Positions 22,911 through 40,330 are shown, counted from the stretch's first letter. The stretch is 64,000 nucleotides of DNA from Alphaproteobacteria bacterium (GCA_025934695.1 JAICWS010000001.1:151301-215300), one strand, 5' to 3'. Numbers and translations are program-made. The notes: generated from the sequence alone by a model not told the origin.

Positions 22911-22955
22911 TGCCCTGATGGGGCTATATAATAATAAACAGCAAGGGGAAGTCCC

Positions 22956-23591: not shown

Positions 23592-23612
23592 ACTCCTTTT
23601 GCACACGATTTT

Positions 23613-23653
23613 GCGGGCCTTCCCTGTCGAAAGGGAGGCCCGCAGGCATTTTT
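23613..23653 (+). terminator. terminator-like hairpin after clpP
   Basis: GCGGGCCTTCCC-TGTCGAAA-GGGAGGCCCGC, then AGGCATTTTT. Confidence 0.55.
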
Positions 23654-23964
23654 AGCCTCTTTTTCGCTCCGCTTGGCTCCGATTTTGAAACTTTTGGAGC
23701 ATCCGGTCGTTAGTATTCCGCCGTATAAGGAACGATCCAGTAAGAGAATTGTGGAATTCTTTTTACATATACTGCGAAATATAAATAACCGTTAACTTTC
23801 GTGTTGCAGGCTTGTAAATGGTTAAAACTTCTCTAGCTGATATGTTATAAGGGCAAAAACGCCTCGAAACCGTCAAAAAAACCTCAGAATCCACCTAAAT
23901 TTGCCAAAAATAAACCATTCACAGGCATAATCTACTTACAAGAGCGTGTAAAAAAGGGAACAGA

Positions 23965-26367
23965 ATGCAAGAAGAAATAGCCACGTCCGGCACGAAACAC
24001 CCTGTCCTGCCTCTCAGAGACATCGTTGTTTTTCCACATATGATCGTGCCGCTGTTCGTCGGCCGCGAAAAATCTGTCAAAGCGCTCGAAAGCGCCATGC
24101 AGGACAACCGCCAGGTTCTCCTGGTCACCCAGAAATCGGCGCAGCAGGACGATCCCGGCGCGGGCGATCTTTATAACATCGGCACGCTCGGCACGGTGCT
24201 GCAGCTCCTCAAACTGCCCGACGGCACGGTAAAAGTGCTGGTCGAGGGCCAGAAACGCGCGAAAATCAAATCCTATACCGACAAGGCCGACTATTTCGAA
24301 GCCGTCGCCGAGATCATCGAAGAACGCACCGTCACGGGCGATGCGATCGAGGGGCTGATGCGCGCCTGCGTGTCGCAGTTCGACCAGTATGTGAAGCTGA
24401 ACAAGAAAATTCCGCCCGAAATCATCACTTCGATCGGCCAGATCGATAATCCCCATAAGCTAGCGGACACGGTCGCATCGCACCTGTCGCTCAAGATTCC
24501 CGACCGCCAGAAGCTGCTGGAGATCGCCGGCGTCGCCGAGCGGCTCGAGCAGATATTCTCCTTCATGGAAGGCGAAATCAGCGTCCTCGAGGTCGAAAAG
24601 CGCATCCGCGGCCGCGTCAAGCGCCAGATGGAGAAGACACAGCGCGAGTATTACCTCAACGAGCAGATGAAAGCGATCCAGAAGGAGCTCAACGAGGGCG
24701 AAGACGGCGTCGACGAGCTCACCGAAATCGAGCAGAAGATCAAGAAGGCGCGCATGACCAAGGAAGCGAAGGTGAAAGCCAACGCCGAATTGAAGAAACT
24801 GCGCCAGATGAGCCCGATGTCCGCCGAAGCGACGGTTGTGCGCAACTATCTCGACTGGATGCTGGGCGTTCCCTGGGCCAAGCGCTCGAAAGTCCTCAAG
24901 GACCTGAAATTCGCCGAAAGCGTGCTGGACAAGGACCATTACGGTCTCGAAAAGGTCAAGGAACGCATTCTTGAATACCTTGCCGTGCAACACCGCGCCA
25001 ACAAGGTGAAGGGCCCGATCCTGTGCCTCGTCGGCCCGCCCGGCGTTGGTAAAACCTCGCTCGGCAAGTCGATCGCGAAAGCCACGAACCGCAACTTCGT
25101 GCGCATGTCGCTGGGCGGCGTGCGGGATGAATCCGAAATCCGCGGCCACCGCCGCACTTATATCGGCTCTATGCCCGGACGCATCATCCAGGGCATGAAA
25201 AAGGCGAAGACCTCGAACCCGCTGTTCCTGCTCGACGAAGTCGACAAGCTCGCGCACGACTGGCGCGGCGATCCGGCGGCGGCGCTGCTCGAAGTCCTGG
25301 ACCCCGAGCAGAACCACACGTTCAACGACCATTATCTCGAGGTCGACTATGACCTGTCGGACGTGATGTTCATCTGCACCGCCAACACGCTCGACCTGCC
25401 GCGGCCCCTGCTGGACCGCATGGAGATCATCCGCGTTTCCGGTTACACCGAGGACGAGAAGGTCGAAATCGCCAAGCGTCACCTGCTCAGCAAGATTCTG
25501 ACGGCGAACGGCCTCAAGAAGGACGAGTTCACGATTTCCGACACGGCGATCCGCCACGTCATCCGCCACTACACGCGGGAAGCGGGCGTCCGCAACCTCG
25601 AGCGCGAACTCTCCAACCTCGCGCGCAAGGCGATCAAGGAAATCATGATGGGCAAGAAGACCTCCATCAGCGTCACGCCGAAGAACGTCGAGAAATACGC
25701 AGGCGTCCCGCGCTTCCGCTTCGGCATGGCGGAAGAGCAGGACCGCATCGGCATGGTCACGGGCCTCGCCTGGACCGAAGTCGGCGGCGAGCTGCTGCAG
25801 ATCGAGTCCGTCACCTTCCCGGGCGGCAAGGGCAAGGTCTCCATGACCGGCAAGCTGGGCGATGTGATGAAAGAGTCGATCCAGGTCGCCGAGATGCTGG
25901 TGAAATCCCGCAGCCACGCGCTGGGCATAAAACAGGAGATCCTCGACCAGACTGGTATCCACGTGCACGTGCCCGAGGGCGCCACGCCCAAGGACGGCCC
26001 CTCGGCCGGTATCGCGATGGTCACCTCGATCGTCTCCTGCCTGACCGGCATCGCCGTGCGCAAGAACGTCGCGATGACGGGCGAGGTCGATCTGCTCGGC
26101 CAGGTTCTGCCCATCGGCGGTCTCAAGGAAAAACTCCTGGCGGCCCTGCGCGGCGGCATTACGAAGGTGCTGATCCCGAAGGAAAACGTCAAGGATCTCA
26201 GTGAGATACCGGATAACGTGAAGAAAGGGATGGAGATCGTGCCTGTGACGGCAATCACAGAAGTTCTCTCGCACGCGCTCACCCGCATGCCAGAGCCCGT
26301 CGAAGACAAGCCGGGCGAGGTCGCGCGCAGCACCGATGGCAAGGAAGAAGACGTCCTCCACCACTGA
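23965..26367 (+). CDS. lon: endopeptidase La (Lon protease)
   Basis: 800 aa. Lon N-domain, Walker [10 protein letters not shown], catalytic Ser context [11 protein letters not shown]. Confidence 0.97.
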
Positions 26368-26629: not shown

Positions 26630-26719
26630 TATTGCGTCGGCTTCGGCTGGCGCCCATTTTTCCATTGATTAAAAGAAGAAATTATATTATACATAATATT
26701 CCAAATTTGAATATTGAAC

Positions 26720-27334
26720 ATGGCTTTCAAAGACCTCTTCCAAATATTTTCCGTTTCCGGGGATGATAGCTTCGCCCGGATGATCAAGGCATGCCGCGAG
26801 GGAAATCTTCCCGCGGTACGCGAGATCGTAGAGCAGAAACGGGAGGCCGTCGCCGCTGTCGATTGGTACGGCCTGACCGGATTGCATCGCGCGGCGGGCG
26901 ACGCCAACCTGCCGCTGGCGTCGTTCCTGCTGGATCACGGCGCCAATCCGATGGCGAAAAGCAATGCCAACAACACGCCGCTCCACTATGCCGCCGCCGG
27001 CGGATCGACAGATATCATAGAGATGTTGATTGCGAGGGGCGCAGCCGTCGACGCGGCGAATGACGACGGCAAAACGCCGCTCGTACGTGCCATCGAAGCG
27101 AACCAGGCCGCCTGCGCCATGGCGCTCATCATGAAAGGCGCCAACACAAAAAGCCGCGCCGTGACATCCGCCTGCAAAAAGGCCAGCCCTGAATTCGCCA
27201 AGCAGCTGGACGCGGCAATCAACACAGTCCAATCCGAAGCGATCGTCCTGACGCTGGGTGAAGGGGCGCAACAGCGGGTGGATACTTTTAAAAAACCTAT
27301 CCATTTCAAGCGGCCAGAAGCGCCCGTCGCCTGA
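26720..27334 (+). CDS. ankyrin-repeat protein (about 4 repeats)
   Basis: Repeated G.T.LH.AA..G......LL..GA motifs (GLTGLHRAAGDANLPLASFLLDHGANP, NNTPLHYAAAGGSTDIIEMLIARGAAV, GKTPLVRAIEANQ...). ATG 26720. Confidence 0.85.
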   Translation: MAFKDLFQIFSVSGDDSFARMIKACREGNLPAVREIVEQKREAVAAVDWYGLTGLHRAAGDANLPLASFLLDHGANPMAKSNANNTPLHYAAAGGSTDIIEMLIARGAAVDAANDDGKTPLVRAIEANQAACAMALIMKGANTKSRAVTSACKKASPEFAKQLDAAINTVQSEAIVLTLGEGAQQRVDTFKKPIHFKRPEAPVA

Positions 27335-28178: not shown

Positions 28179-29231
28179 TCAGGGCTTCGGCGGCTGTAGC
28201 GCCTTGAATGCGGCGACAGGGCCGGTTGCCGTTGCCTTCGGCACTGGCGAGCCGGTGTCGCGGATGCGATCGGTTGCGGCGACGAGCGCCTGCATGTTTT
28301 CGGTCTCGATGGCGGCATGGCCGGAAATCGTCATTTGCAAATGCGCTTCCGGAAAGGCGGCTTTCAGGTCGTGCGCGATCTGCGGCGGGCAGACGATGTC
28401 ATAGCTGCCCTGCACCATGATGGTCGGAATATGCCGGATGCGGTCAATGTTCTGCAGGATGCGGTCATCGGGCGTGAACAGGCAGTTGCGGAAATAATGC
28501 GATTCAATCCGCGCGACGTTCAGCGCATCCTGGTCGCTTTCCACGATGCGCGGGTCGTTATCCGCCGGCTGCTTGAGGTAGCAGCAGACGTTTTCAAACC
28601 GCGCCCAGGCCTGCGCCGCCGGGATGCTGATCTTGTCGTCGCTGCTGGTCAGGCGCTTGTAGAAATTCTCCATGAAGTCCGCACGCTCGTCCTCGGGCAG
28701 GAACTCGCGGATGCGCTTCGCCTCCTCGGGACGGAACAGCTCCGCCGCTTCATAAAACATCTCGATGTCGCGCTTGCGCATCAGGAAGATGCCGCGGAGC
28801 GTAAGCGTCAGGGTGTTTTCAGGATGCTCTTCGGCATAGAGAAGGGCAAGGGTCGAGCCCCAGGAGCCGCCGTAGACATGCCATTTGTCGATGCCGAGAT
28901 GCTGGCGCAGCCTATCGAGGTCGTCGACGAGCAGGTCGGGCGTATTGTCCTTCAGCTCGGCCGAGGGCGTCGATTTTCCCGCGCCGCGCTGGTCGTAAAC
29001 GATGATGTGGAAGGCCTTCGGATCGAAGAAGCGGTGAAAATGCGCGCCGCTGCCGCCGCCCGGCCCGCCGTGCAGATAGACGATCGGAATGCCTTCCGGA
29101 TTGCCGAATTCCTCGTAATGCATCGTATGCGTCGCATCGAGTTTCAGCATGCCGCCGCCGATTTTTTCGCTCGCGGGGTAAAGGTATTGATCTTTCGGAT
29201 CGGAGGAAGGCTTCGCGTCTTGCATGATCAC
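28179..29231 (-). CDS. pip: prolyl aminopeptidase (proline iminopeptidase), tandem copy 1
   Basis: HGGPGGG and the nucleophile elbow GGSWGSTLALLYA. Alpha/beta hydrolase S33 layout. Confidence 0.85.
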   Translation of the reverse strand: MIMQDAKPSSDPKDQYLYPASEKIGGGMLKLDATHTMHYEEFGNPEGIPIVYLHGGPGGGSGAHFHRFFDPKAFHIIVYDQRGAGKSTPSAELKDNTPDLLVDDLDRLRQHLGIDKWHVYGGSWGSTLALLYAEEHPENTLTLTLRGIFLMRKRDIEMFYEAAELFRPEEAKRIREFLPEDERADFMENFYKRLTSSDDKISIPAAQAWARFENVCCYLKQPADNDPRIVESDQDALNVARIESHYFRNCLFTPDDRILQNIDRIRHIPTIMVQGSYDIVCPPQIAHDLKAAFPEAHLQMTISGHAAIETENMQALVAATDRIRDTGSPVPKATATGPVAAFKALQPPKP

Positions 29232-30268
29232 GGTCCTTTGGGCTTAGGGTTATGGGCAGGGGCGGGCGTTACGGTTTTTTTTAGCACCGGCGAGCCTGCG
29301 TCGCGGATGCGGTCGGTCGCGGCGACCAGGCGCTTCATCGTTTCAGGCATGCCGCCGGAATGGCCGGACTGGACGAATTCGAGGCTGCAGTTGTTCAGCT
29401 TTTCCGACAGGTCATAGGCCGACATCGGCGGGCACACGTTGTCATGCCGCCCCTGCACGATCGCGGTCGGAATGTCTTTGATCTTCGCGACGTTCTGCAT
29501 GATGCTGTCATCGGGCATGAAGTTGCGGAAGAAATAGACCTCGACCAGCGCGAAGGGCAGCGCCTTTTGCGGCGGATCGTTGCGGATCTCGTCGGGCGGC
29601 ACGTCCAGAAACGCGCAGCCGTTCTCGAACCGCGTAAAGGCCGCCGCTGCCGGCAGATGCACGGCCGGATCCGGGTCGGTCAGCCGCTGGTAATAGGCCT
29701 CGAGAATATTGTCGCGCTCGGCCTCGGGAATGAAGTCGACGAATTCCTTGTAGACATCGGGATAGAAGGTGCCCTGGCGGTTCACGTACCAGTCGACTTC
29801 CTTGTCGCGCATCATAAAGACGCCGCGCAAGGTCATGCTTTCGACATGCTCCGGGTATTTTTCGGCATAGAGCAGCGCCAGCGTCGAACCCCAGGAGCCG
29901 CCGAACAGGTGCCATTTATCGATGCCGAGGTGCTGGCGCAGTTTCTCGTTGTCCTCGACGAGGATGGCCGGCGTGTTGTTCTCGATGAGGTGCATCGGAT
30001 CGCCGTCTTTTTTGAAAGCCCCCGGCGACGACCGCGGCGCGCCCCGCTGATCGTAGGTGATGATGTGGAACACTTCCGGATCGAAGAAGCGATGGAAGTA
30101 GGGGGCGCAGCCCGCGCCCGGTCCGCCATGCAGATAGACGATCGGAATGCCGCCCTTCTTGCCGTATTCCTGATAGGCGATTGCATGGCCATCGCCGACA
30201 TCCAGCGTGCCTTCATGGAAGGGCTGGCTCGCGGGGTAAAGGATGTCATCCTTCTCGTCGTGCGACAT
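29228..30268 (-). CDS. pip: prolyl aminopeptidase (proline iminopeptidase), tandem copy 2
   Basis: HGGPGAG and GGSWGSTLALLYA. Its stop overlaps the start of copy 1 (ATGA at 29228-29231). Confidence 0.85.
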   Translation of the reverse strand: MSHDEKDDILYPASQPFHEGTLDVGDGHAIAYQEYGKKGGIPIVYLHGGPGAGCAPYFHRFFDPEVFHIITYDQRGAPRSSPGAFKKDGDPMHLIENNTPAILVEDNEKLRQHLGIDKWHLFGGSWGSTLALLYAEKYPEHVESMTLRGVFMMRDKEVDWYVNRQGTFYPDVYKEFVDFIPEAERDNILEAYYQRLTDPDPAVHLPAAAAFTRFENGCAFLDVPPDEIRNDPPQKALPFALVEVYFFRNFMPDDSIMQNVAKIKDIPTAIVQGRHDNVCPPMSAYDLSEKLNNCSLEFVQSGHSGGMPETMKRLVAATDRIRDAGSPVLKKTVTPAPAHNPKPKGP

Positions 30269-30299
30269 TGCTTATGCTCCGGCAGGTGATATGCCGCTA

Positions 30300-30329
30300 G
30301 TCATAGCGGACCGGGAAGCGCTATGTCAA
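30300..30329 (-). promoter_or_regulatory. sigma70-type promoter of the pip operon
   Basis: -35 TTGACA (rc 30324-30329), 18-nt spacer, -10 TATGAC (rc 30300-30305). Confidence 0.4.
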
Positions 30330-30369
30330 TTAGGGGCATGCGCAATAATATTTCCGGAGATCGGGTTGC

Positions 30370-31479
30370 TTACCCGCCCAAGGACGGCTTCTTCTTCGTC
30401 ACCGTTTTGTTCACCCCGGTCATGGATTTGATGAAATCGACTTCCTTCTGGATGTAGGGGGTGCCGTCCTGGCGCAGGATCTCGTGGAACCACAGGGGCG
30501 GCTCGCTCGCATAAGGCTTCTGCCAGGAATCCCAGGGCAGATGCGTCTGCGTGCGGCCCTGCACGAAACCCCAGTTGAAAAGGCCGATGTTGTGTTTCTT
30601 CGCGACCGGCATGATGTCTTCGAAAGTGCTCCCCGCGGGACGCGCCATATATTCGGTGCAGAGCAGGGGGCGGTCATGCTTCATGAGGTATTTCGCGCGG
30701 CGCTCGAAATCCGCAGCCGGCGCATAGTTGTGGAAAGAAATCAGGTCGGATTCCTCCATCTGGACTTTCTGCACGGCATTGACCTTGTCGAGATCATCCC
30801 ATTCGCCGATCCAGACGCCGCTGATGAGCGGCTGGTCCGGGTCTTGCGAGCGCGCCCATTTGAACACGTCGGAGAGCAGGGGCGCCACGAGGTCGATTTT
30901 GTTCTCCGGTTCGAGTTTGCCGTAGCTTGAAGCGTTGGTGTTGTCCGGTTCGTTCCAGACATCCCAGCCCAGCACGCGGCTGTCCTTGCCGAAAGCGCCG
31001 ACCACGCCTTCCACATATTCCTGCAGGCGCTTGCGCTGCGACGGATCCTGCAGTGCCGCGGCACCCGGCCCTTGCACCCAGCGGGAATTATGCACGCCAG
31101 GAACAGGCTCCTGCTGCGGGCCCAGTTTCGGGTTCGGATCCCATACGGAATCGAACAGCACGAGAAGTGGTTTGATGCCGTGCTTCTCCGCGACTGAAAG
31201 GAAAGTGTCGATGCGCGTCTTGAAGCCTTCCGGATCTTCTTCCCACAGGAGGTCATGCAGGAACACGCGCACGGTGTTCATCCCAAGATCGGCGGCCCAG
31301 CCAAGTTCCTTGTCGATCTGCTTGGGATTGAAAGTCGCCGCCTGCCACATTTCGAGCTGATTACTCGCGGTTGCGGGCGCATAGTTGCATCCCACGAGCC
31401 ACGGCTGTTCGGAATACCACTGGTTCGCGTGGGCTTGGGTCCAGCGTGGAGGATTAGCATCCTTCTCGGCGTTTTTCAT
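30370..31479 (-). CDS. clan GH-A (GH5-like) glycoside hydrolase
   Basis: WDVWNEPDN (acid/base NEP) and CTEY (candidate nucleophile Glu), spaced as in TIM-barrel GH5 enzymes. No signal peptide. Confidence 0.6.
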   Translation of the reverse strand: MKNAEKDANPPRWTQAHANQWYSEQPWLVGCNYAPATASNQLEMWQAATFNPKQIDKELGWAADLGMNTVRVFLHDLLWEEDPEGFKTRIDTFLSVAEKHGIKPLLVLFDSVWDPNPKLGPQQEPVPGVHNSRWVQGPGAAALQDPSQRKRLQEYVEGVVGAFGKDSRVLGWDVWNEPDNTNASSYGKLEPENKIDLVAPLLSDVFKWARSQDPDQPLISGVWIGEWDDLDKVNAVQKVQMEESDLISFHNYAPAADFERRAKYLMKHDRPLLCTEYMARPAGSTFEDIMPVAKKHNIGLFNWGFVQGRTQTHLPWDSWQKPYASEPPLWFHEILRQDGTPYIQKEVDFIKSMTGVNKTVTKKKPSLGG

Positions 31480-31598: not shown

Positions 31599-32084
31599 AT
31601 GAAACAACCGAAAGTTGAGTTGGGAATCAAAGGCGTTCTCGAACCGTTTTGCGAAACGGGAACGGAAGGCATCATCTGGTCGCTGCAGGATGAAAAGCAC
31701 ATTGCGCCGGACGGCTCCTATTCCTATGACGGACTCAACGGCCTCGAGGACGGCGACTTCCTGAAGGTCTTCAATGACGCGGCGCGCAAGAAAGTTATCT
31801 GGCAGGGCGAAATCAAATTGAAATATCCGCCCGCGACGCAGTTCAACCGCGGCGTGCAGGATGGCGTGAACGAGCGCACCTGGACAAAGATGTTCTTCGA
31901 CGAGAAGCCCGGCACGCTCTACAAAAAGAAGGACTGGGTGAAGATCAAGGCGGAGAAGAAAGCGCGGGCTGACGCAAGGGAGGCCGCGCGGCTGAAAAAG
32001 ATCGCCGACACGGAGCGTTCGTGCCTTGAAGGCGTGACGATCAAGCCGATGAAACAGATCCGGCTGAAGCCGGGCCAGCCTTAA
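31599..32084 (+). CDS. hypothetical protein
   Basis: ORF 31524-32084. The upstream part overlaps the divergent promoter, so an internal ATG (31572, 31581 or 31599) is more likely. None has a good SD. Lys-rich C-terminus. Confidence 0.4.
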   Translation: MKQPKVELGIKGVLEPFCETGTEGIIWSLQDEKHIAPDGSYSYDGLNGLEDGDFLKVFNDAARKKVIWQGEIKLKYPPATQFNRGVQDGVNERTWTKMFFDEKPGTLYKKKDWVKIKAEKKARADAREAARLKKIADTERSCLEGVTIKPMKQIRLKPGQP

Positions 32085-33412
32085 GCCGGCTTTACCTTCA
32101 TCTTCAGCAACCGTCCGCCGAACACGGCGCTTTCGTCGGCAGCGCCCCCTCTCTTCTTGAATTCTCCATAGGCCTGCCGCAGCGCTTCGTCGCTGACGGT
32201 GTCGAAGGACTCATGCGGTCCCATCGTTTCGGTTTTCGCCGACAGGTTTTCGGTGAGGGAGAGGCGCTCGCGCGTTTCGAAATTGAAAATTTCCGTGAGG
32301 CGGCGGTTGAGGACCGGAATGACGGTCGAATGGACAATGCTCGCCTTTCCCGACAAAAACCACGTGTCATCATCCCGTGATGCAGGAACAGGCGGCGGGG
32401 GCGAAGCAATCGCTGCCGGGACTGGCTTGACGACCGGTGCCACGGGTTCCGGAGCAATTTCCGGCGGCGGATTTTGCAGCAGTTTCACAACATCAGTCAG
32501 CGCATATTGCTGAGCGTAGGAAAGGGCCGTGCGTCCGCCTGAATCCTTCGCTTCCTTGTCGACGCCCTGCGCGAGCAGGAATGTCACCGTCTCCGTGAGC
32601 CCTTCAGCTGCCTTCGATTCCACCGCCGTGTGCAGCGCTGTCTTAAGCTCGGCGTTGAGTGCCCTGGCTTTAAAACCGTTCACGATCAGGGCCGTCATCA
32701 GCGAGACGTTTCCGTTCCGCGCCGCCGCATGGATCGGGAACTCATCGTCGAGAGGCTTGGCGCCCGCCTTGAGGAGCATCCGGACCATTTCCTCGTCGTT
32801 CAGGGCGCAGGCGCATTGCAGCGGACTCTGACGGAAGACCTTGGGTTCTGACTCCGACCAGCCCCAGAAGCTGGAGCGTCCATGGTCGCGCCGTGTTTCG
32901 ACGCGTGGCACGTTCGGGTCGGCGCCGGCGGCAAGGAGCATGGCCAGGCAGTCCCTGCTTTTGCTTTCCACGGCGGTGTAGAGGGCGGGTTTCCCGCCGG
33001 CGTTGAGGTCCGCGCCTTTGGTATCGAGGAAGATTTTCACGACCCCGGCGCGGTTCGCGGCGATGGCATAGAGCAGGGGCGACATCTTCCGATTATCCTG
33101 CGTGCCGATGTACGAGGCCGCCCCGTTTTCAAGCAGGGTGCGGACAGTCTCGGTGTGGCCGCCCGTCGCGGCGTAATGCAACGCCGTCCTGCTGCTATTG
33201 TCGCTGCACCAGGCCGGCGCCCCGGCTTTCAGCAATTGAGCGACGATGCCGGCATGCCCGTTTTTCGCGGCGAGGAGAAGGGCGTATTCTCCTGTCTTTT
33301 TGTCCTGCGCCCGCGACCAGGTGCGGTCGTCGGCCAGATAGCGGGCGACGGTCTTTTCGTCGCCGCTGGCCGCGGCGTGGAAAAACTTCTTTTGGCTCCA
33401 GAAAATGCCCAT
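32081..33412 (-). CDS. ankyrin-repeat protein (about 8 repeats) with Pro-rich linker and unknown C-terminal domain
   Basis: Multiple TALHYAATGGH..V..LL..GA-type repeats over the first 300 aa or so, then PPPEIAPEPVAPVVKPVP and a 100-aa tail. Confidence 0.85.
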   Translation of the reverse strand: MGIFWSQKKFFHAAASGDEKTVARYLADDRTWSRAQDKKTGEYALLLAAKNGHAGIVAQLLKAGAPAWCSDNSSRTALHYAATGGHTETVRTLLENGAASYIGTQDNRKMSPLLYAIAANRAGVVKIFLDTKGADLNAGGKPALYTAVESKSRDCLAMLLAAGADPNVPRVETRRDHGRSSFWGWSESEPKVFRQSPLQCACALNDEEMVRMLLKAGAKPLDDEFPIHAAARNGNVSLMTALIVNGFKARALNAELKTALHTAVESKAAEGLTETVTFLLAQGVDKEAKDSGGRTALSYAQQYALTDVVKLLQNPPPEIAPEPVAPVVKPVPAAIASPPPPVPASRDDDTWFLSGKASIVHSTVIPVLNRRLTEIFNFETRERLSLTENLSAKTETMGPHESFDTVSDEALRQAYGEFKKRGGAADESAVFGGRLLKMKVKPA

Positions 33413-33514
33413 GGTTTCGCCGGGTTACTCGCTTGAGTTATGGGCGAAAAGGATATGACATAATAATCGCATGGTCAATCCGCAGAATTGCAGTTAAATC
33501 GCGGTTTTATGCTA

Positions 33515-33543
33515 TTGACAGGGGTCTTTATGGGGGATATGAC
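33515..33543 (+). promoter_or_regulatory. sigma70-type promoter
   Basis: TTGACA (33515-33520), 17-nt spacer, TATGAC (33538-33543), 28 nt before ATG 33571. Confidence 0.45.
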
Positions 33544-33570
33544 AATTCATCAGCCCCGAAAGGATCAGTC

Positions 33571-34560
33571 ATGTCTGAAGAGAAAAAGCCGTTATCCGAA
33601 AGATTGCGCGCCGCCCGCGATGAATTCAACGATCTCGCAGCCAAGTCAAAGGCCGCGGCTGGCAAGCTCGATCTCCTGATCACGGAGGCTTTCGCGCAGG
33701 AAAACCGCACCGAGCTCAACAAAGTGCTGGATCAGTTCATTCCGACGGTCGACAAGTCGGCGCTCAAGGGCCACGACATCGTGTTCCTCATCAACAAATC
33801 GACTGACATGGGCGAAGGTTTCTTCAGCCCCATCGGCGCCGCCATCAGCACGGCGACCTCGCTCGCGGCCGCGACCGGCGGCCACGACGTGCGCGTGTCG
33901 GGCCTGCTGTGGGAAGCGGGTAACAGCACGAAAGCGCTGGCGCTCGGAGATTCTGACCGTCTCGAAAAAGCGCGCGAAAAATCCAAGACGACCAATAAGG
34001 AATTGCTGCCGGCCGTCCGCGAAATCATGCTCAACAATACGCCGGACAAACAGGACGGCCGCCAGAAGCACTTCATCGTCGTCTCGACGGGCAGCGTGAC
34101 CGACAACGTCGAGCATTCGGTCGAGATGATCAATACGGCGCTGCGCATGAATCCGCGCATCACCTTCGACTTCGTCACCGTCGGCACGGGCGAGGGGAAC
34201 ATGCAGGATCTCGTCTCGAAGATCGACGCTCCTGAAGCACGCAAGCCCTCGTATCTCCTCGTGTCCAAACACGAAGACCTCAACGGCGCCGTGATGAATA
34301 TCCTCACCGGCCGCTTCAAAGGCGAAGCGCCGAAACCGGTTGAAGCGCCGAAAGTGGTGGAAGCGCCCAAAGCGGAAGCCGCTGCAGTCGTTCCCGAGGC
34401 GCCGAAGCCTGCCGAACAGCAACCGAAAGCGGAAGCGCCGAAGACGGATATCGCGCAGGCTTCCAAAGCAGAAGCGCCTGCCATGGCAGAAGCCGCTCAG
34501 CCTCAGGCTGCTGCTGTGCCCGCCGCTGGCAAGAAGAAGTGGTATCGCTTCGGCCGCTGA
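33571..34560 (+). CDS. coiled-coil + vWA-like protein with degenerate MIDAS and Ala/Pro/Lys-rich tail
   Basis: Paralogous in layout to 56323-57264: VFLINKSTDM vs FFGDGSGSM, LLWEAG vs FLWGDS, KHFIVVSTGSVTD vs PHYIILSDGDVFD, ITFDFVTVG vs IDFIIFS. ATG 33571 follows AAAGGA. Confidence 0.55.
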   Translation: MSEEKKPLSERLRAARDEFNDLAAKSKAAAGKLDLLITEAFAQENRTELNKVLDQFIPTVDKSALKGHDIVFLINKSTDMGEGFFSPIGAAISTATSLAAATGGHDVRVSGLLWEAGNSTKALALGDSDRLEKAREKSKTTNKELLPAVREIMLNNTPDKQDGRQKHFIVVSTGSVTDNVEHSVEMINTALRMNPRITFDFVTVGTGEGNMQDLVSKIDAPEARKPSYLLVSKHEDLNGAVMNILTGRFKGEAPKPVEAPKVVEAPKAEAAAVVPEAPKPAEQQPKAEAPKTDIAQASKAEAPAMAEAAQPQAAAVPAAGKKKWYRFGR

Positions 34561-34617
34561 ATAGAGCGCTTGTTCAGCCGTTTATTCGTGAAAGCTCAAG
34601 TATTGAATCACCGGATC

Positions 34618-34649
34618 AGATTCCGAGTCGTAAAAACGGCTCGGAATCT
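34618..34649 (+). terminator. terminator-like hairpin after the vWA-like gene
   Basis: AGATTCCGAG...CTCGGAATCT forms a perfect 10-bp stem (extendable by 3 bp). Weak T-tail. Confidence 0.4.
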
Positions 34650-34694
34650 TACCGTTGTTAACTTACTGAAATTCCATTGAATTTTCCAAAAAGT

Positions 34695-34722
34695 TTGACG
34701 CCGCGGCTTTGTCTGCTACGCT
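34695..34722 (+). promoter_or_regulatory. sigma70-type promoter inside the AT-rich spacer
   Basis: TTGACG (34695-34700), 16-nt spacer, TACGCT (34717-34722). Confidence 0.4.
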
Positions 34723-34728
34723 GAGACA

Positions 34729-34843
34729 GCATCCAGGAAGGGCGCGGTATAACCAGTGATTTACATAACTTTTTCGCTGATGAATTCAGCAGGAAAAACA
34801 ACCGAAGGAGCCGGACGCTTGCAAACAAGTGCCGGTTTTTTTT
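34729..34843 (+). ncRNA. candidate small RNA or 5' leader/attenuator (about 115 nt)
   Basis: Bounded by the promoter at 34695-34722 and a strong intrinsic terminator at 34811-34843. No credible ORF inside. Confidence 0.35.
34811..34843 (+). terminator. rho-independent terminator
   Basis: CCGGaCGCTT-GCAAAC-AAGTGCCGG (9 bp with one bulge) followed by T8 (34836-34843). Confidence 0.7.
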
Positions 34844-34920
34844 GTCCTTCCAATTCCGATTCGTTTGATATGAATTTTTCACAGTCAGTTAGTAGGAATT
34901 ATTCGCAACTGGCGCAAAAT

Positions 34921-34974
34921 ATTTTGCATAACTTTGCTATCATTTTGCATAAACCGTATTCGTTTTGCCATAAC
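34921..34974 (+). promoter_or_regulatory. three phased direct repeats TTTTGC(C)ATAA
   Basis: ATTTTGCATAAC (34921), ATTTTGCATAAA (34942) and GTTTTGCCATAAC (34962). Spacing of 21 and 20 nt, i.e. two helical turns. Confidence 0.45.
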
Positions 34975-35060
34975 ACTATCACAAGATTTTTTTCAATCTC
35001 GACAATATCGAAAATGCTTGCGCCTCAAAAATATTTTCCGTATGACTTAGACATAATTCA

Positions 35061-35085
35061 TTTTCCGAAAAATATCTTCGGAAAA
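35061..35085. promoter_or_regulatory. palindrome TTTTCCGAA-N7-TTCGGAAAA (operator-like)
   Basis: Perfect 9-bp arms, about 70 nt upstream of ATG 35154. Confidence 0.4.
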
Positions 35086-35153
35086 GAAACGACCGAAAAA
35101 GACTACAACCAAAACCAAAAAACGAACTAGCACAGAAGAAGGAGACTACACAG

Positions 35154-36887
35154 ATGGCAGACACAGCAACAGCCCTGCAAAAAGCGAAAGAACTCGCCGA
35201 GCAGGCCGCGGTAGCGACGAAGAGGAAGACGGTTACCCAGACCACGACTTCTTCCGCGACCGAGACGAAAACGGACGACAAGTTCGCTGACATCAGCACG
35301 AACACGTTCTACAAGATCGTCTTCAACGAGAAGCTCGACGCCGAGCAGAAGAAAGCCGAAGTCGCGAAGGCCCTGACGTTCGATCCCGATCAGAAGGAAG
35401 AATGCCAGAACCGCCTGAAGGAATTCGTGACCTTCAAGGAATACCTGCAGAACGAGCGCAAGCGCCTCGCGCAGGAAATCATCAAGCTGACCGACACCGG
35501 CGCGTTCTCTGAACTCCAGGGCGTCATCGAGCAGCTGAACTCCGGCGTTCTCGAATTCGACAAGCGCATGACCCCGCTGACCGACATCATCGAAGCCGTC
35601 TACCAGCTTCGCTTGCAGGGCGGCGACACCGTCCTGGGCGTCTTCAAGGAGATCAAGGAAGACCAGGCGGCCGAGGAAGAGCGCAAGAAGAAAGTCGCTG
35701 AACATGAGAAGACCCTGCAGGACCTGCAGCGCGAAACCGATCAGGCCAAGGGCGACCTTGCCGTGCTGCAAAACAGCCGCAAGAACCGCAAGTGGCTGGG
35801 CCTCGGCGGCCTGAAGGACCAGGCGATCCGCGACATCCAGTCGAAAAACGACGAGCTGGCCAAGATCGGCACGACCGTCGAGTCGACCGCGAAAGAGCTG
35901 GAAGACCTGAAAGACCCGAACAAGGCGCGCGAAACGCAATACGCCCAGTTCGCGGAACAGAAGGCCAAGCTGCGCGAACTGCTCGACCTCACCTCGGAAG
36001 AGCACAAGACGCGCCAGAAGGACCTGGTCAACTCGGCCCAGACGTTCGTCAACAACTGCGACGAGCGCGTCGGCTCCGTGCTGAACCACCTCGACGCGAT
36101 GAGCGGCCAGATCGAAGGCCTCTCGAACGTCAACAACGGCATGCAGAGCATCTACGCGATCGTCTCCGAGGCTTCCAAGGACGCTTCTGACAACAACCAG
36201 AAAGTCCGCGAAGCCTATATGCCCCCGAAAGAGGGCGCGGAAAGCCCGATCGCCCAGATGCAGCGCGAGTCGAAAAAGCAGGCCGCTGAGGAATTCATCA
36301 CCTCGATGGACTCGTCCACCGTGGACACGATGAAGACCTACTCGGATCTCGCTTCGCAGGCCGTCCGCATCAAGCAGATGAAGGACGCCAACCGCGAACA
36401 GGTCTCGAAGACGCGCGAACTGCACTCGTCGGGTATCGCCGGCGTCGCTGACCGCCTCTCCACCGTTCTGCAGGCTGTTTCGGCCGCCGCGCTGAACGAA
36501 TCGGCGGAAGCTGCGAAGCAGTCGATCGGCACGATGACCGACAAGACCAACGCGGTCGCGATGAAAGAGTCCATCCGCACGGCAATGGGCATCAAGGACG
36601 CGGCGATCGGCCTGAACAAGGCTGTCGACGACCTGGCTGCTTACGGCGAAGTCCTGAAAACCTCCTCGCAGATCACCCGCGAGGGCGTGCAGGAGATCAA
36701 GCAAGGCCTCGGCGCCCTGCAGGAAAGCATCAAGAAGACGACTGCTGACCTCAAGGACGCATACGCGGTCAACGCTGAAGTCGCCGCTGGCACTACGGCG
36801 CCCGCTGCTTCGAACGACGACAAACCGGCCGCGGCTCCGACTTCCACGTCGAAGCCCAAGGACCCGTTCGCGCAGTTCAATAAGTAA
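35154..36887 (+). CDS. 577-aa coiled-coil protein of unknown function (possibly TelA-like)
   Basis: GAAGGAG SD. Helical, charged, heptad-like sequence throughout. No TM segment or signal peptide. Thr/Ser-rich N-terminus and Ala/Pro-rich C-terminus. Confidence 0.75.
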   Translation: MADTATALQKAKELAEQAAVATKRKTVTQTTTSSATETKTDDKFADISTNTFYKIVFNEKLDAEQKKAEVAKALTFDPDQKEECQNRLKEFVTFKEYLQNERKRLAQEIIKLTDTGAFSELQGVIEQLNSGVLEFDKRMTPLTDIIEAVYQLRLQGGDTVLGVFKEIKEDQAAEEERKKKVAEHEKTLQDLQRETDQAKGDLAVLQNSRKNRKWLGLGGLKDQAIRDIQSKNDELAKIGTTVESTAKELEDLKDPNKARETQYAQFAEQKAKLRELLDLTSEEHKTRQKDLVNSAQTFVNNCDERVGSVLNHLDAMSGQIEGLSNVNNGMQSIYAIVSEASKDASDNNQKVREAYMPPKEGAESPIAQMQRESKKQAAEEFITSMDSSTVDTMKTYSDLASQAVRIKQMKDANREQVSKTRELHSSGIAGVADRLSTVLQAVSAAALNESAEAAKQSIGTMTDKTNAVAMKESIRTAMGIKDAAIGLNKAVDDLAAYGEVLKTSSQITREGVQEIKQGLGALQESIKKTTADLKDAYAVNAEVAAGTTAPAASNDDKPAAAPTSTSKPKDPFAQFNK

Positions 36888-36901: not shown

Positions 36902-36932
36902 CCGGGCGCGGCCTTCAGAAAGCCGCGTCCGG
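36902..36932 (+). other. intercistronic GC-rich hairpin
   Basis: CCGGGCGCGGC-N9-GCCGCGTCCGG (11 bp, one G-U pair), with no T-run. Lies between gene 1 and gene 2 of the cluster. Confidence 0.4.
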
Positions 36933-37017
36933 AAGATGACCGGACCAGAACAGACAGCAAGCAAGGTTTATGCACTTCAATGCCTGCCTGACGGGCGAAG
37001 TGTCAAAAAAGAAACGG

Positions 37018-39408
37018 ATGACGACAATGGCAGATGAAACCCAACCGGCCCCTTCGGCCGCCAGCACGGGACCCAGCAGCGACTACCTGATCCGCGGTTC
37101 CGACTACCTCGCGAAGCATCCCGGCTTCAAAGCCGTCGGCCGCGAAGCGGAAATGAAGCAGGTCTCCAACATCCTCATGCGCAAGGACAGCAACAACGTG
37201 CTGCTGACCGGCCTCGCGGGCGTTGGCGTCTCGTCCATCAGCATGGGCCTCCAGGCCAGCAAGGATGATCTGAACACGCCGTCCGACATCGTCGGCAAGC
37301 GTTTCTACTGGCTCGACACCGACGCGCTCTTCGCATCGGGCGATCCCGCCAAGATCAACGAGGGCTTCCAGAAGGCGATCGCGACCCTGTCGCGCGCGCC
37401 GGACACCGTCCTCGTCATCGACGACTTCAAGGACTTCCTCGACGGCTGCCGCAACACCGGCTCCACGAACATCATCAACGCGCTGATGCGCGAAGTGCGC
37501 CAGAACAGCGCGTTCCAGGCCATCTTCGAAGTACGCGACACCGACCTGCCCGAGGCGCTGAAGGCGCACTCTGACATGAAAGACATCTTCACCCTCATGG
37601 AGATCAAGGAACCCGACAAGGCGGCCCTGGTACAGATGGTCGATGCGGGCTGCAAAGACCTCGAGGCGCACCACAAGATCAAGATCGACGACGACGCCAA
37701 GAAGACGGCGATCGATCTTACCAGCAAATACTCCATCCGCGAACTCGACGTCGCGCAGCCGAAGCGGGCTTTCATGCTCCTCGAAGGCGCGCTCACCGAG
37801 CTGCGCCACGATGCGCATACGCACCCGTTGGCGCGCGACGCGGTGGAAGAGCGCGTGAAGGACATCGACGCGGCTCTGGCCGGCAAGCCCTCGGACGAAC
37901 TGAAGGAAAAGTCGGCGGACGAGCTCCAGGCGATGAAACTGGAGGCCCAGATCGAGGCCGACAATATCACCAAGCAGTGGGAAGAGCGCCAGAAGCAGCT
38001 GCGCGCCCTGTACAAGGACCAGCGCAACGCGGAAGAAGAAATCCGCGGCCTCGACGTCAAGATCGAGGAGGAGCACCAGAAGAACGCCGCTGCCGCCAAG
38101 CAACACGAAAAAGACGAAGCGGAGAAGCAGGATTCGCAGGCGCCCACGACGACGCGCGCGCTGCAATTCAACCTCGCCAAGTCCGGCTTCAAGGGCACGG
38201 TCGAGCAGCAACTGGTGGACCAGCGCAAGGAATGGGACAGGCTGGCCCGCGACAACAAGGCGAAGTTCGACAAGCTGATCGACGAGATCAACGAAGGCGT
38301 CGTGCTGAAATCCGACCATATCCTGCAGGAATTCAGCCGCCTGTCGGGCGTGCCGGTGAGCCGCCTCGGCCAGGACGAGACGACCAAGCTGCTCGCCCTG
38401 GAAGACACGCTGAAGACTCGTGTATTCGGCCAGGACGAGCCGGTGGAGGCCGTCTCCAAATCGGTGCGCCGTGGCCGTACGGGCCTCAAGAAGGCGAACA
38501 AGCCCATTGGCTCGTTCCTCTTTCTCGGTCCTTCGGGCGTCGGCAAGACCGAACTCGCCAAGGCCCTGGCCGAAGCGCTGTTCGGCGACCAGAGCTCGCT
38601 TAAGGTGTACAACATGTCGGAATACCAGGAGAAGCACACGCTTTCCACGCTTATCGGCTCGCCCCCGGGCTATGAGGGTTATGCCGACGGCGGCGTCCTG
38701 ACCAACAACATGCGCCGTCAGCCCTATTGCGTGAACGTCTTCGACGAGATCGAAAAGGGCTGCCGCGAAGTGTTCGACATCTTCCTGCAGATCCTCGACG
38801 AGGGCATGCTGACGGATCGCCGGGGGTTGACCTCTTCCTTCGCGAACTCGATCAATATCATGACCTCGAACATCGGCGCCGAATTCTTCCTCGATCCGAA
38901 CCTGTCGTTCGACGAAGCGAAGAAGAAAGCGCTTGAGGTCCTGTGGAACCCCGACAAGGACAAGGGCGGCTCGGGCTATCGCCCCGAGTTCCTGAACCGC
39001 TTCACGGGCATCTTCTGCTTCAACCGCCTGGGCCAGCCGGAGATTATCAAAATCTGCGACAAGAGCTTCAAGGAGATCAACGGCTGGATCGCCGATAAGG
39101 GCATCCAGGTCAAGATGGACCAGGCCGACAAGGAAGCGATGTGCAAGGACCACTATATTCCCCGCGGCGGCGCGCGCTCGATCATGGGCTACATCGAAAA
39201 CAACATCACTTCCGATGTGTCCGACGAGATCCTGCGCCATCCCGACGAAGTGGGCACGCTAAAAGTCAGTTACGACGCGAACGCGCAACAGGCGAAAACC
39301 TCGTTCATCCCGGCCAGCCAGGAAAAGAAACCGGCCCCGGCGAACGAGAATGCGCCCGGCGGTTCGGCCACCAAGGCCAGCGGCGCAGTGTTCAACGCAT
39401 CCAAGTGA
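37018..39408 (+). CDS. ClpB/Hsp100-like AAA+ protein without N-domain; degenerate NBD1, intact NBD2
   Basis: NBD1 Walker A is GLAGVGVS (ClpB GEPGVGKT) and Walker B is LVIDD (IDE). Coiled-coil M-domain-like insert. NBD2 has GPSGVGKT, VFDEIEK, pore loop GSPPGYEGY and sensor GGARS. Start may be 37018 or 37027. Confidence 0.85.
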   Translation: MTTMADETQPAPSAASTGPSSDYLIRGSDYLAKHPGFKAVGREAEMKQVSNILMRKDSNNVLLTGLAGVGVSSISMGLQASKDDLNTPSDIVGKRFYWLDTDALFASGDPAKINEGFQKAIATLSRAPDTVLVIDDFKDFLDGCRNTGSTNIINALMREVRQNSAFQAIFEVRDTDLPEALKAHSDMKDIFTLMEIKEPDKAALVQMVDAGCKDLEAHHKIKIDDDAKKTAIDLTSKYSIRELDVAQPKRAFMLLEGALTELRHDAHTHPLARDAVEERVKDIDAALAGKPSDELKEKSADELQAMKLEAQIEADNITKQWEERQKQLRALYKDQRNAEEEIRGLDVKIEEEHQKNAAAAKQHEKDEAEKQDSQAPTTTRALQFNLAKSGFKGTVEQQLVDQRKEWDRLARDNKAKFDKLIDEINEGVVLKSDHILQEFSRLSGVPVSRLGQDETTKLLALEDTLKTRVFGQDEPVEAVSKSVRRGRTGLKKANKPIGSFLFLGPSGVGKTELAKALAEALFGDQSSLKVYNMSEYQEKHTLSTLIGSPPGYEGYADGGVLTNNMRRQPYCVNVFDEIEKGCREVFDIFLQILDEGMLTDRRGLTSSFANSINIMTSNIGAEFFLDPNLSFDEAKKKALEVLWNPDKDKGGSGYRPEFLNRFTGIFCFNRLGQPEIIKICDKSFKEINGWIADKGIQVKMDQADKEAMCKDHYIPRGGARSIMGYIENNITSDVSDEILRHPDEVGTLKVSYDANAQQAKTSFIPASQEKKPAPANENAPGGSATKASGAVFNASK

Positions 39409-39430: not shown

Positions 39431-40330
39431 ATGGCAGACGGCAGCAGCGGCAAACCTAAGTCGATCGACGAACTGCTCGAAGACGCGCGCAAGATCAGGG
39501 CGCAGGTCGGGCAGACGACTCAGGATGCCAAAAAACTGAACATCAAAGGCACCGTGGCCGGCGATGCCTTGAAAAAGGTCGAAGTGCTCAATGACGCCGC
39601 GCAGGAAGCGCACGGCGTAAAGGCGCTCGTCACCGAAACCGGGCGCAGCGTCGGGCATTTCATCGTCCACAGCTGGCCGGTGCGCGCCTACGCCTGGCTT
39701 TTCAAGAAGCTCTGCTACAAGAAGGACAAGGCGACGGGCGAGAAGAAAGTGAGCCCGCGCCGCGCCAAGGCCATGATCCTGTCGACGGCCTTCCTGGCGT
39801 CCGCCGCGATTCCCGGCATGATCGGCATGCCCGCCCGCCATACCATCGGCGCGGTGGCAGAGCCGGTCTTCGACGGCGCGCGGATGGCGACCATGATGCA
39901 CAAGAACGAGATCATGTACCTCAACGACGAACACGTCGTCGACCATGCGCACAACGTCTGGGTCGTCAAGGGCACCACCAAGCCCGGCGGGGACGTGAAC
40001 GACGCCGTTCTTCTGAACGTCAAGCCGAGCCTGATGAACGACCTCTGGAGCTGGAAGAACAAGGGCAACCCGTTCTTCATTCCCGACCAAGTCGTGTCTC
40101 CCGTCGCGCCCGGCAACCAAACCCGATACATGGTGACCTATTACGGCCATCGCTGGAGGCTCTTCACCTGGATGCAGGCCTATCCTGAACTGCTCGATGT
40201 GAAGGCGCTGCCCGCCGACTTCAACGCGAACGCGACGAAGGCGCCAGCCGCCAACGCAAACGCGCCGCAGGCGCAGCACACGACACCTGCGCCGGTTCAG
40301 GCGTCGGCGCCCAAGGCGCCCGGCCAATAA
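39431..40330 (+). CDS. single-pass membrane protein with DUF1523-like C-terminal region
   Basis: AGGAGG SD. One hydrophobic helix (ILSTAFLASAAIPGMIGM). YYGHRWRLFTWMQAYPELL resembles the YGWR...FPN segment of DUF1523 (from memory). Ala/Pro/Asn/Gln-rich tail. Confidence 0.6.
   Translation: MADGSSGKPKSIDELLEDARKIRAQVGQTTQDAKKLNIKGTVAGDALKKVEVLNDAAQEAHGVKALVTETGRSVGHFIVHSWPVRAYAWLFKKLCYKKDKATGEKKVSPRRAKAMILSTAFLASAAIPGMIGMPARHTIGAVAEPVFDGARMATMMHKNEIMYLNDEHVVDHAHNVWVVKGTTKPGGDVNDAVLLNVKPSLMNDLWSWKNKGNPFFIPDQVVSPVAPGNQTRYMVTYYGHRWRLFTWMQAYPELLDVKALPADFNANATKAPAANANAPQAQHTTPAPVQASAPKAPGQ

Follow-up and report, generated by a model that had tools for sequence, protein, structure and literature searches.

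A ClpB-like ATPase with a predicted non-catalytic first ring, encoded in a conserved three-gene cassette

Introduction

Can an Hsp100 protein keep a first ATPase ring that has lost its catalytic residues, and what would such a ring then be for? The question is raised by a gene, hereafter B, which encodes an Hsp100/ClpB-like ATPase on the + strand (positions 37018 to 39408) of a 64,000-nucleotide stretch of DNA from an Alphaproteobacteria bacterium (GCA_025934695.1, JAICWS010000001.1:151301-215300). This whole stretch is called the window below, and coordinates are counted from its first letter unless another locus is named. Hsp100 proteins are textbook two-ring threading machines, and the division of work between their two rings is debated. 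A first-pass annotation of the window had described B as a single-motor Hsp100 with a structural pseudo-ATPase ring. Our analysis sustains this description, through the motif losses in the first nucleotide-binding domain (NBD1), the intact motifs of the second (NBD2) and the conservation of NBD1 in the family, and we consider it very probable that B combines a pseudo-NBD1 with an NBD2 that is its only motor. In addition, we find that B is one part of a conserved three-gene cassette, a context which the first-pass annotation did not cover. What is new here is an Hsp100 with a pseudo-ATPase first ring, set in a new three-gene module.

Degeneration of the first nucleotide-binding domain

The region corresponding to the large and small subdomains of NBD1 (residues ~20-300, positions 37075 to 37917, + strand; residues are numbered from a start at 37018) aligns to the NBD1 of both ClpC and ClpB. 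In a phmmer search against PDB sequences, residues 13-328 match the NBD1 of Staphylococcus aureus ClpC (6em9; 65.8 bits, E 2.6e-17), and this alignment gives the fate of each catalytic feature. The Walker A motif GLAGVGVS (residues 65-72, positions 37210 to 37233, translation checked) stands opposite GEPGVGKT, with V71 at the position of the Lys. The Walker B segment VLVIDDF (LVIDDF at 37411 to 37428) stands opposite ILFIDEL, with D136 at the position of the catalytic Glu. The segment ASGD-PAKINEGF is opposite GTKYRGEFEERL, which holds the KYRGEFEER pore loop of ClpC; the pore-loop Tyr is gone, and the former pore loop 1 (SGDPAKINEGFQ, positions 37336 to 37371) has no aromatic residue. These three losses had been read by eye in the first-pass annotation, and each is recovered here with no register shift. 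Two further losses come in addition to those already proposed: the sensor-1 Thr (GATT in ClpC, FEVR in B) and the pair of Arg fingers (ERRF in ClpC, KDIF in B).

A shifted register could in principle bring back canonical residues. The comparison covered HMMER alignments against PDB (ClpC, ClpB and Hsp104 structures), the NCBIfam ClpV1 and ClpB models and MAFFT family alignments, none of which restores a Lys or a Glu in NBD1. Misalignment as the source of the dead NBD1 is thus ruled out by the agreement of independent aligners. Pfam detects no Clp_N domain (PF02861) in B, in keeping with the earlier claim that this domain is absent. The accompanying estimate of about 45 residues ahead of NBD1 was only approximate: some 19 residues precede the first conserved helix, and Walker A begins at residue 65.

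Judging from these residues, the NBD1 of B is incapable of ATP hydrolysis by the canonical mechanism, and in the main branch of the family ATP binding in the normal mode has probably been lost as well. The loss may go as far as a total absence of nucleotide binding.

The second domain, the M region and the ClpP loop

The NBD2 of B (positions 38314 to 39252, + strand) is canonical, with the Pfam domains AAA_2 (residues 495-663, 1.4e-48) and ClpB_D2-small (residues 671-742, 4.1e-10), and is the presumed sole motor. All the motifs which the first-pass annotation listed as intact are in place: Walker A GPSGVGKT (residues 504-511, positions 38527 to 38550), the pore loop GSPPGYEGY (residues 547-555, positions 38656 to 38682), Walker B VFDEIEK (residues 574-580, positions 38737 to 38757) and the sensor-2 motif GGARS (residues 717-721, positions 39166 to 39180). 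The sensor-1 TSN and the Arg of PEFLNRF are retained too. Residues 430-771 align to the NBD2 of ClpC in the phmmer search against PDB (E 7.5e-77), and identity to the NBD2 of ClpC and ClpB is 41-47%.

Between SNIGAE and PEFLNRF, where the first-pass annotation had seen no ClpP-docking tripeptide, a search with the wider pattern [ILVMA]-G-[FLM] likewise finds none in B, and none in 65 of 66 relatives. In the same alignment, two ClpC-like database matches carrying Clp_N and UVR Pfam domains (P0090 and P0114) have an LGF docking loop.

Between the two ATPase domains lies a charged, M-domain-like helical insertion of ~130 amino acids (residues ~301-432, positions 37918 to 38313, + strand), which is the most variable part of B and is poorly conserved and variable in length throughout the family. 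The ClpB model TIGR03346 runs straight through it (query 299-742 aligned to model 406-834), as do Hsp104 structures, whereas ClpC alignments skip residues ~300-432. B thus has an insertion of ClpB length at the position of the M-domain.

Reading frame and family placement

B is a single long open reading frame (ORF) on the + strand, ending with a stop at 39408. The frame is intact, and GC content reaches 0.85 at third codon positions (GC3) against 0.38 at second positions. B is thus clearly coding, and the antisense ORFs are mirror-frame artefacts of a high-GC coding sequence. Three starts come into consideration, at 36970 (812 amino acids, the start in the source record), at 37018 (796 amino acids, the start in the first-pass annotation) and at 37027 (793 amino acids). 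The closest relative (locus L008) has ATT at the equivalent of 37018 and ATG at the equivalent of 37027, which makes 37027 the best-supported start.

B has both features of class I Clp/Hsp100 proteins, namely an NBD2 of the AAA_2 plus ClpB_D2-small type and, N-terminal to it, an NBD1-homologous module with its lid (weak Pfam match to AAA_lid_9, residues 204-300). The NCBIfam models for ClpB, ClpA, ClpV1, ClpK and ClpG all match the protein, at about one seventh to two fifths of their curated cut-offs. It scores 381.3 bits against the ClpB equivalog TIGR03346 (cut-off 1232.1), 355 against the ClpA equivalog TIGR02639 (cut-off 993), 253 against PRK11034 (cut-off 1350) and 343 against ClpV1 TIGR03345 (cut-off 885), the last alignment running end to end (query 40-741). 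B is therefore an Hsp100 outside all curated families. Its homologues bear generic database names ("AAA family ATPase" or "ClpB protein"), and we found neither a published description nor a characterised homologue of the family or its cassette in the literature and database names; in particular, no characterised protein with the same substitutions turned up. We conclude that the B family is an undescribed Hsp100 subfamily, which starts at NBD1, without Clp_N, and has no ClpP-docking loop. As proposed here, the subfamily is further marked by [ED]-D at Walker B, an NBD1 devoid of pore-loop Tyr and Arg fingers, a canonical NBD2 and a place between an A-family and a C-family gene (see below).

Conservation of the degenerate domain

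Among 5.8 billion proteins searched, 83 clusters match B over nearly its whole length at 37-93% identity, a few of them being fragments. All 83 come from uncultured Alphaproteobacteria or Micavibrio-like bins, and their names are generic. NBD1 is covered by 81 of the clusters, and in all 81, down to 37% identity, the Walker A Lys is missing. The family pattern is GxxGvGx[ST][SA], in which the place of the Lys is taken by V, I, L, C, T, G, A, S or R; Walker B reads [D/E/N]-D or similar, and the pore-loop Tyr is missing from all clusters covering NBD1. The domain is equally dead in 65 of 65 distinct B copies that adjoin gene A (see below) in genomes, for a total of about 150 homologues without the NBD1 Lys. 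The recurrence of the same substitutions in 81 of 81 clusters and 65 of 65 genomic copies excludes chance.

The dead domain is nevertheless well conserved. Mean pairwise identity in the family is 57% in the large subdomain of NBD1 and 48% in the small one, compared with 68% in the large subdomain of NBD2 and 32% in the M region. Within residues 1-300, 73 positions are conserved at >=90%, among them family-specific residues close to what were once the pore loop and the active site (W98, D100, D102, F105, R145, N146, E171, R173 and D174). The 57% identity and these family-specific invariant residues show strong purifying selection on the dead domain, as would fit a structural or docking role that has been retained.

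When NBD1 alone was searched with phmmer against 1.84 billion representatives at 50% identity, 68 clusters were found at E ≤ 1e-30. Just below the family in this search stands a sister group of Hsp100s without an N-domain (P0317, P0319, P0325, P0327, P0333, P0338, P0361 and P0368), whose NBD1 retains GxxGxGKT, with a Walker B [I/V]-E-D, a sensor-1 "MVRE", no pore-loop Tyr and no Arg fingers. One sister-branch locus (L088, encoding P0333) has the same gene layout as the cassette described below: the upstream 585-amino-acid protein is collinear with protein A (hhalign E 5.6e-5), and the downstream 362-amino-acid protein matches protein C (hhalign E 3.5e-4; hidden Markov model (HMM) of C, 2.5e-8), with which it has a KDKxTGE motif in common. 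From these motifs and this layout, the loss of hydrolysis and of the pore loop marks the whole cassette-linked clade, while the loss of the Lys is confined to the main branch. The sister branch appears to have stopped halfway: it retains the Lys but has lost hydrolysis, pore loop and Arg fingers.

One family member from the representative search (P0311, 977 amino acids) has its NBD2 Walker A (GASGVGK|…|T) interrupted by a ~400-amino-acid insertion that looks like an intein or homing endonuclease.

A conserved three-gene cassette

In the window, B is the middle gene of a group of three on the same strand, in the order A (35154 to 36887), B (37018 to 39408) and C (39431 to 40330). The gene next downstream of C is convergent. 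Upstream of A lies an AT-rich intergenic region of 593 bp (34561 to 35153, + strand, read directly), which from its position would be the promoter or leader region of an A-B-C operon.

A scan with the A profile, limited to one genome per species, gave 80 loci. B lies directly downstream of A in 85 of 87 loci, and both exceptions stop at a contig edge; in 66 of 68 loci the gene after B is a C homologue (jackhmmer). B and C overlap by 4 nucleotides in 15 loci, and the pairwise identities of the three proteins rise and fall together (r 0.84-0.88). In one lineage (L003/L004) no C homologue was detected, and the sole ORF directly downstream of B encodes 78 amino acids.

The order A-B-C recurs in a Micavibrio metagenome-assembled genome (MAG), in two other metagenomic lineages, in Taklimakanibacter lacteus and in Dongia sp., with unrelated flanking genes each time, and the synteny of the cassette is stable inside the Micavibrio-like lineage. 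Carriers among the Alphaproteobacteria include Micavibrio-like bins, Hyphomicrobiales, Parvibaculaceae, Dongiaceae, Maritalea and Rhodobacterales such as Mameliella and Sagittula. Those among the Gammaproteobacteria include Pokkaliibacter, Motilimonas, Halopseudomonas, Vibrio sp. Of7-15, Woeseiaceae, Wenzhouxiangellaceae, an Alcanivorax MAG and Arenicellales, and others belong to Bradymonadales, Desulfuromonadales and "Deltaproteobacteria" bins. Near-identical cassettes were found on two contigs (L011 and L012) of the MAG JAQSDV01, reflecting either a true duplication or redundancy of assembly or binning.

Phages carry the cassette as well. A tblastn search of A against 50,697 phage records gave a sole match, in the 490-kb jumbo phage Agrobacterium phage Atu_ph07 (36% identity, E 4e-74), where the A homologue AUZ95252 adjoins the "ClpB protein" gp492 (AUZ95251; NBD1 motifs GPGGVGCST and IVEN), and a C homologue (AUZ95247, C-HMM E 1.8e-66) comes after three small genes. 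The genome paper of this phage describes gp492 as a ClpB chaperone that may aid host survival of infection stress (PMC6102473). IMG/VR holds seven more contigs bearing A, of which six have complete A, B and C; they are phage-like, with a GC content of 26-57%, and the cassettes are flanked by ORFans, an endolysin-like gene and PHROG families of unknown function. From these phage-borne copies of all three genes we conclude that the cassette travels and works as a unit. Neither A nor the NBD1 of B has a match in 72,556 plasmids, and plasmid-borne mobility was rejected on this ground.

Extra ORFs occur inside phage cassettes, such as the three between B and C in Atu_ph07 (L091, positions 11686 to 13138 of that locus). 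In the viral contig L096, what could have been taken for a split B is instead an extra ORF of 402 amino acids between A and an intact B (7602 to 10159). Adjacency is thus strict in cellular genomes and relaxed in phages.

Proteins A and C

Gene A (35154 to 36887, + strand, GC3 0.84) encodes an orphan, all-helical protein of 577 amino acids, with a disordered N-terminal tail rich in Ser and Thr, a long helical bundle, a disordered linker and the terminal sequence DPFAQFNK. We found 438 homologues. The order of elements common to the family is a low-complexity N-terminal tail, an entry motif KF[AS]xIxxNxF, the helical core, an AVxA[DE]V segment, an acidic or Pro-rich linker of 20-30 residues and a terminal peptide [D/N/S]PFxx[F/L]. 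Computed from 36 sequences, an AlphaFold2 (AF2) model of A contains nothing but helices, the longest of 82 residues; its mean predicted local distance difference test score (pLDDT) is 69, with values of 80-92 over much of residues 41-420 and low confidence in residues 1-39, apart from a short stretch, and in most of residues 466-568.

No relative of known function could be assigned to A. It has no match in Pfam, NCBIfam, PADLOC or PHROGs, its profile finds nothing among PDB sequences, and a Pfam scan of each family member gave only scattered coiled-coil noise. The best Foldseek match in PDB has an E-value of 0.12. The weakest of the Foldseek matches of A include the alpha-pore-forming toxins SmhB, XaxB and PaxB as well as TelA-like phage proteins, and all fold matches are non-significant (E>0.002, TM-score, i.e. 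template modelling score, below 0.45). Against viral predicted structures, Foldseek gives weak matches to a "tellurite resistance protein" (TelA-like; E 0.03, target TM-score ≤0.43) and to tail-fibre or SMC-like proteins. Two candidate assignments were rejected: a TelA-like nature at the sequence level, as hhalign gives 0.2% probability against KlaB/TelA of plasmid pBS228, and a PspA/ESCRT-III-like nature, for which there is no Foldseek match in PDB and no detection of Pfam PspA_IM30.

Just after the stop of A, inside the operon, we read a GC-rich hairpin with an 11-bp stem (36903 to 36933, + strand). The A-B spacer folds far better than its shuffled versions (z = -4.4), and an equivalent hairpin follows the stop of A in seven relatives (L008, L010, L015, L017, L018, L019 and L022; z -3.0 to -5.8), in which the structure but not the sequence is kept, with apparent compensatory changes. 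The hairpin is possibly an attenuator or an mRNA stabiliser inside the operon, and it would fit the production of more A than B.

Gene C (39431 to 40330, + strand), which is preceded by a strong AGGAGG ribosome-binding site 10 nucleotides upstream, encodes a predicted single-pass membrane protein of 299 amino acids; homologues have about 250-300. Its layout consists of a cytoplasmic helical N-terminal part with the KDKxTGE motif, a transmembrane helix at residues ~114-135 and a beta-rich C-terminal domain. Nearly all homologues conserve one hydrophobic helix within residues ~100-135, ahead of which stand basic residues and a conserved W..Y.W..K…KDKxTGE motif. With a pLDDT of 53, the AF2 model of C is too poor for use in a fold search.

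Comparison with known systems

ClpB and Hsp104 (TIGR03346; 1qvr, 6oax, 5vjh) share with B the tandem Hsp100 AAA+ modules, a long charged insertion at the M position (in B a putative M-domain), an NBD2 with a GYxG-type pore loop, a sensor-2 GAR and a D2-small domain, and the lack of a ClpP-docking loop. B differs from them in having no Clp_N, in an NBD1 stripped of Lys, Glu, Tyr, sensor-1 Thr and both Arg fingers, and in its invariable association with two partner genes which ClpB lacks. B also has no sign of the [ILV]-G-[FL] docking loop in NBD2 that is expected of the ClpP-partner unfoldases ClpA, ClpC and ClpE.

The closest functional analogy is with ClpV/TssH, an Hsp100 dedicated to a structural substrate encoded in the same locus, the VipA/B sheath. 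However, ClpV has a VipB-binding N-domain and two active rings; no type VI secretion (Tss) genes were found near B, whose neighbours are ankyrin, von Willebrand factor A (VWA)-like, histone deacetylase (HDAC)-like, gltX and comEC genes; and A is all-helical and not sheath-like.

A single motor of the NBD2 type is also found in human CLPB/Skd3 (7ttr, 7us2), which the NBD2 of B matches at E 7e-37, although Skd3 is a eukaryotic, mitochondrial protein with ankyrin repeats in place of NBD1. Type II AAA+ proteins with one inactive ring (D2 in NSF, D1 in PEX1/PEX6) and bacterial PspA-linked proteins combining an inactive classical AAA with a classical AAA domain (Ravi et al., bioRxiv 10.1101/2020.09.24.301986) resemble our reading of B: a ring without catalysis serves as scaffold beside a motor ring, and the ATPase is coupled to a helical or coiled-coil, membrane-associated partner. 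NSF, PEX1/PEX6 and the PspA-linked proteins nevertheless belong to the classical AAA clade, and the PspA/Snf7 partner has no similarity to A. Finally, plant SMAX1/D53 (SMXL) proteins are double AAA proteins of Hsp100 descent in which the Walker A is degenerate and no nucleotide is bound (PMC12639087), but their degenerate module is D2, which is canonical in B, and SMAX1 is a transcriptional co-repressor rather than a motor.

The B family is natural and widespread, with a first ring that is switched off yet under strong selection. It thereby offers a system for asking what a non-catalytic Hsp100 ring does, and whether NBD2 alone threads in bacteria, as it does in human Skd3. Together with the two orphan proteins to which it is strictly coupled, it makes up a new three-component module, which is testable by genetics and biochemistry in cultured carriers (Mameliella, Halopseudomonas, Pokkaliibacter, Motilimonas and Taklimakanibacter) and with the phage copy, Atu_ph07 gp492 and its neighbours. 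The finding also corrects annotation.

A model for the cassette

How could such a protein work? We propose that B would form a hexamer, with an NBD1 tier that acts as a scaffold independently of nucleotide, and that NBD2, as the sole motor, would thread substrate through the pore. The pseudo-NBD1 ring, together with the variable M-domain-like insertion, would then provide a fixed scaffold and a docking and regulatory surface. A single ring of the NBD2 type can suffice, as AAA2 is the main threading motor of ClpB, with the M-domains docking on AAA1 (Deville et al. 2019, PMC6593972), and human CLPB/Skd3 functions with one NBD2-type ring (PMC9934407).

Inactive rings serve as assembly scaffolds in NSF and in PEX1/PEX6. 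B would be dedicated to its operon partners rather than act as a general disaggregase. In its architecture A resembles a substrate or a polymer subunit: it is all-helical, with disordered tails and a conserved short terminal motif. It would be an abundant, elongated helical-bundle protein and a client of B, which may recognise it through the disordered tails, the C-terminal [D/N/S]PFxx[F/L] peptide being the chief docking site, and then disassemble, unfold or recycle it. C, whose translation is coupled to that of B, would place this activity at the inner membrane. The relation between A and B resembles in its logic that of ClpV to the VipA/B sheath, of NSF to SNAREs or of Vps4 to ESCRT-III. 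The substrate role of A, the docking role of its tail, the membrane localisation and the biological role are proposed on these grounds of architecture, gene order and analogy. Taken as a whole, the model of B as a dedicated remodeller of A at the membrane is tentative, and we find it about as easy to doubt as to believe.

Several points weigh against this model. A has no recognisable relative, so "polymer or substrate" is a guess from its architecture, and the physical interaction of A, B and C is something we infer. Their correlated divergence may result from shared phylogeny alone. The NBD1 of the B family retains the P-loop glycines and a Ser/Thr (GxxGvGx[ST]), and the sister branch keeps the Lys; the domain may therefore bind some nucleotide or another ligand. 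The M-domain is the site at which ClpB binds DnaK, and a link to Hsp70 through the M-domain-like insertion is possible for B. The hairpin behind A lacks a T-run and differs from a canonical terminator. Finally, the promoter scans were simple consensus searches. They gave no sigma-70, sigma-32, sigma-54 or sigma-E consensus above chance in the leader of the window and no heat-shock or sigma-54 consensus in 63 regions upstream of A, and this lack of a heat-shock promoter itself speaks for the model rather than against it.

A bolder version of the model makes the cassette a bacterial machine for membrane remodelling or maintenance, borrowed by phages, in which A would form a helical-bundle lattice or complex on the inner membrane, C would anchor or nucleate it, B would disassemble it and the pseudo-ring would be the recognition platform. 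We consider this version doubtful; if true, NSF/SNARE or Vps4/ESCRT-III would have in the A-B-C machine a bacterial equivalent, built on an Hsp100 scaffold.

Alternative explanations

Two alternatives, both of which we regard as improbable and to a similar degree, assign different roles to the partners. According to the first, B is a general, DnaK-assisted disaggregase, a slimmed-down ClpB working on NBD2 alone, with A and C as stress proteins or cofactors under common regulation and not as its specific substrate. The ClpB-length insertion collinear with ClpB and Hsp104, the lack of a ClpP loop and the 41-47% identity of NBD2 to its counterparts in ClpC and ClpB all speak for it, as does a gene for a 311-amino-acid DnaJ-domain protein which is divergent from A in one lineage (L003/L004, positions 2737 to 3675 of that locus, - strand); this is also the role assumed in the Atu_ph07 paper. 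However, B has neither Clp_N nor the pore-1 Tyr, its M region is the least conserved part of the protein (32%), its score is far under the ClpB cut-off, and no sigma-32-type promoter was found. Moreover, an obligate A-B-C linkage across Proteobacteria and phages would be unexpected for a general chaperone.

According to the second, A is an adaptor or regulator that uses its tail motif to tether B to C at the membrane, and B extracts or unfolds other clients there, such as membrane or envelope proteins, in the manner of an adaptor-controlled ClpC or an Msp1-like extractase. A consists of a folded domain that a disordered linker joins to a short terminal motif, a layout typical of tethering adaptors, and the conserved transmembrane helix and juxtamembrane motif of C, together with the translational coupling of B and C, agree with such a role. 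On the other hand, A is large (~570 amino acids) and, from the hairpin, seemingly set for higher expression than B, which better suits a stoichiometric structural protein; in addition, no candidate client is encoded nearby, and the flanking genes vary.

The cassette could also be a conflict module, acting against phages, by abortive infection or in host takeover by phages, in which A would be a pore-forming or membrane-perturbing effector that B checks or activates. Its self-contained nature, patchy distribution and variable neighbourhoods, and its presence in a jumbo phage and phage-like contigs, would be expected of such a module; the NBD2 of B matches the PADLOC candidates PDC-M37B and DolB, and SmhB, XaxB, PaxB and TelA-like phage proteins are among the weakest Foldseek matches of A. 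Nevertheless, the PADLOC matches cover only the generic NBD2 and the architecture differs, the fold matches of A are non-significant (with the 0.2% hhalign probability against TelA), the neighbours are housekeeping genes rather than defence islands, and the cassette is absent from the 72,556 plasmids and stably syntenic in the Micavibrio-like lineage. We therefore regard this explanation as very unlikely.

The last alternative, that the degenerate NBD1 is an artefact of misalignment, sequencing error or pseudogene decay, has nothing in its favour beyond the prior expectation of two active rings in an Hsp100, and is to our mind already refuted by the independent agreement of aligners, the intact frame with its GC3 of 0.85 and the strong conservation of the same substitutions in ~150 sequences from many phyla.

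Other features of the window

The 593-bp leader is an unusually long AT-rich non-coding stretch for a genome of 60% GC. A terminator-like hairpin followed by a T-run lies at 34816-34840 and a palindrome, TTTTCCGAAAAATATCTTCGGAAAAG, near 35066. No Rfam family matches the leader, which could house a small RNA or a regulatory leader. Just upstream of it, a gene at 33433 to 34560 (+ strand) encodes a 375-amino-acid protein with a sub-threshold VWA match (E 1.5e-4) and no match in NCBIfam or PHROGs.

Two ankyrin-repeat proteins are encoded near the cassette, one of 206 amino acids (26714 to 27334, + strand) and one of 443 amino acids (32081 to 33412, - strand). The latter occupies the same relative place upstream of the cassette in the Micavibrio MAG (L001), a placement that did not recur in the other lineages examined.

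Farther upstream, the region from 20127 to 26367 contains tig (trigger factor), a gene for a divergent ClpP-like protein of 370 amino acids, a canonical clpP (211 amino acids) and then directly lon; clpX is not in the 374-bp gap that is its normal place. The ClpP-like protein has N- and C-terminal extensions and scores 161 against TIGR00493 (cut-off 309). Between this region and the cassette, on the - strand (28179 to 31479), there are tandem alpha/beta-hydrolase genes (350 and 346 amino acids) and a gene resembling cellulases of glycoside hydrolase family 5 (GH5; 369 amino acids).

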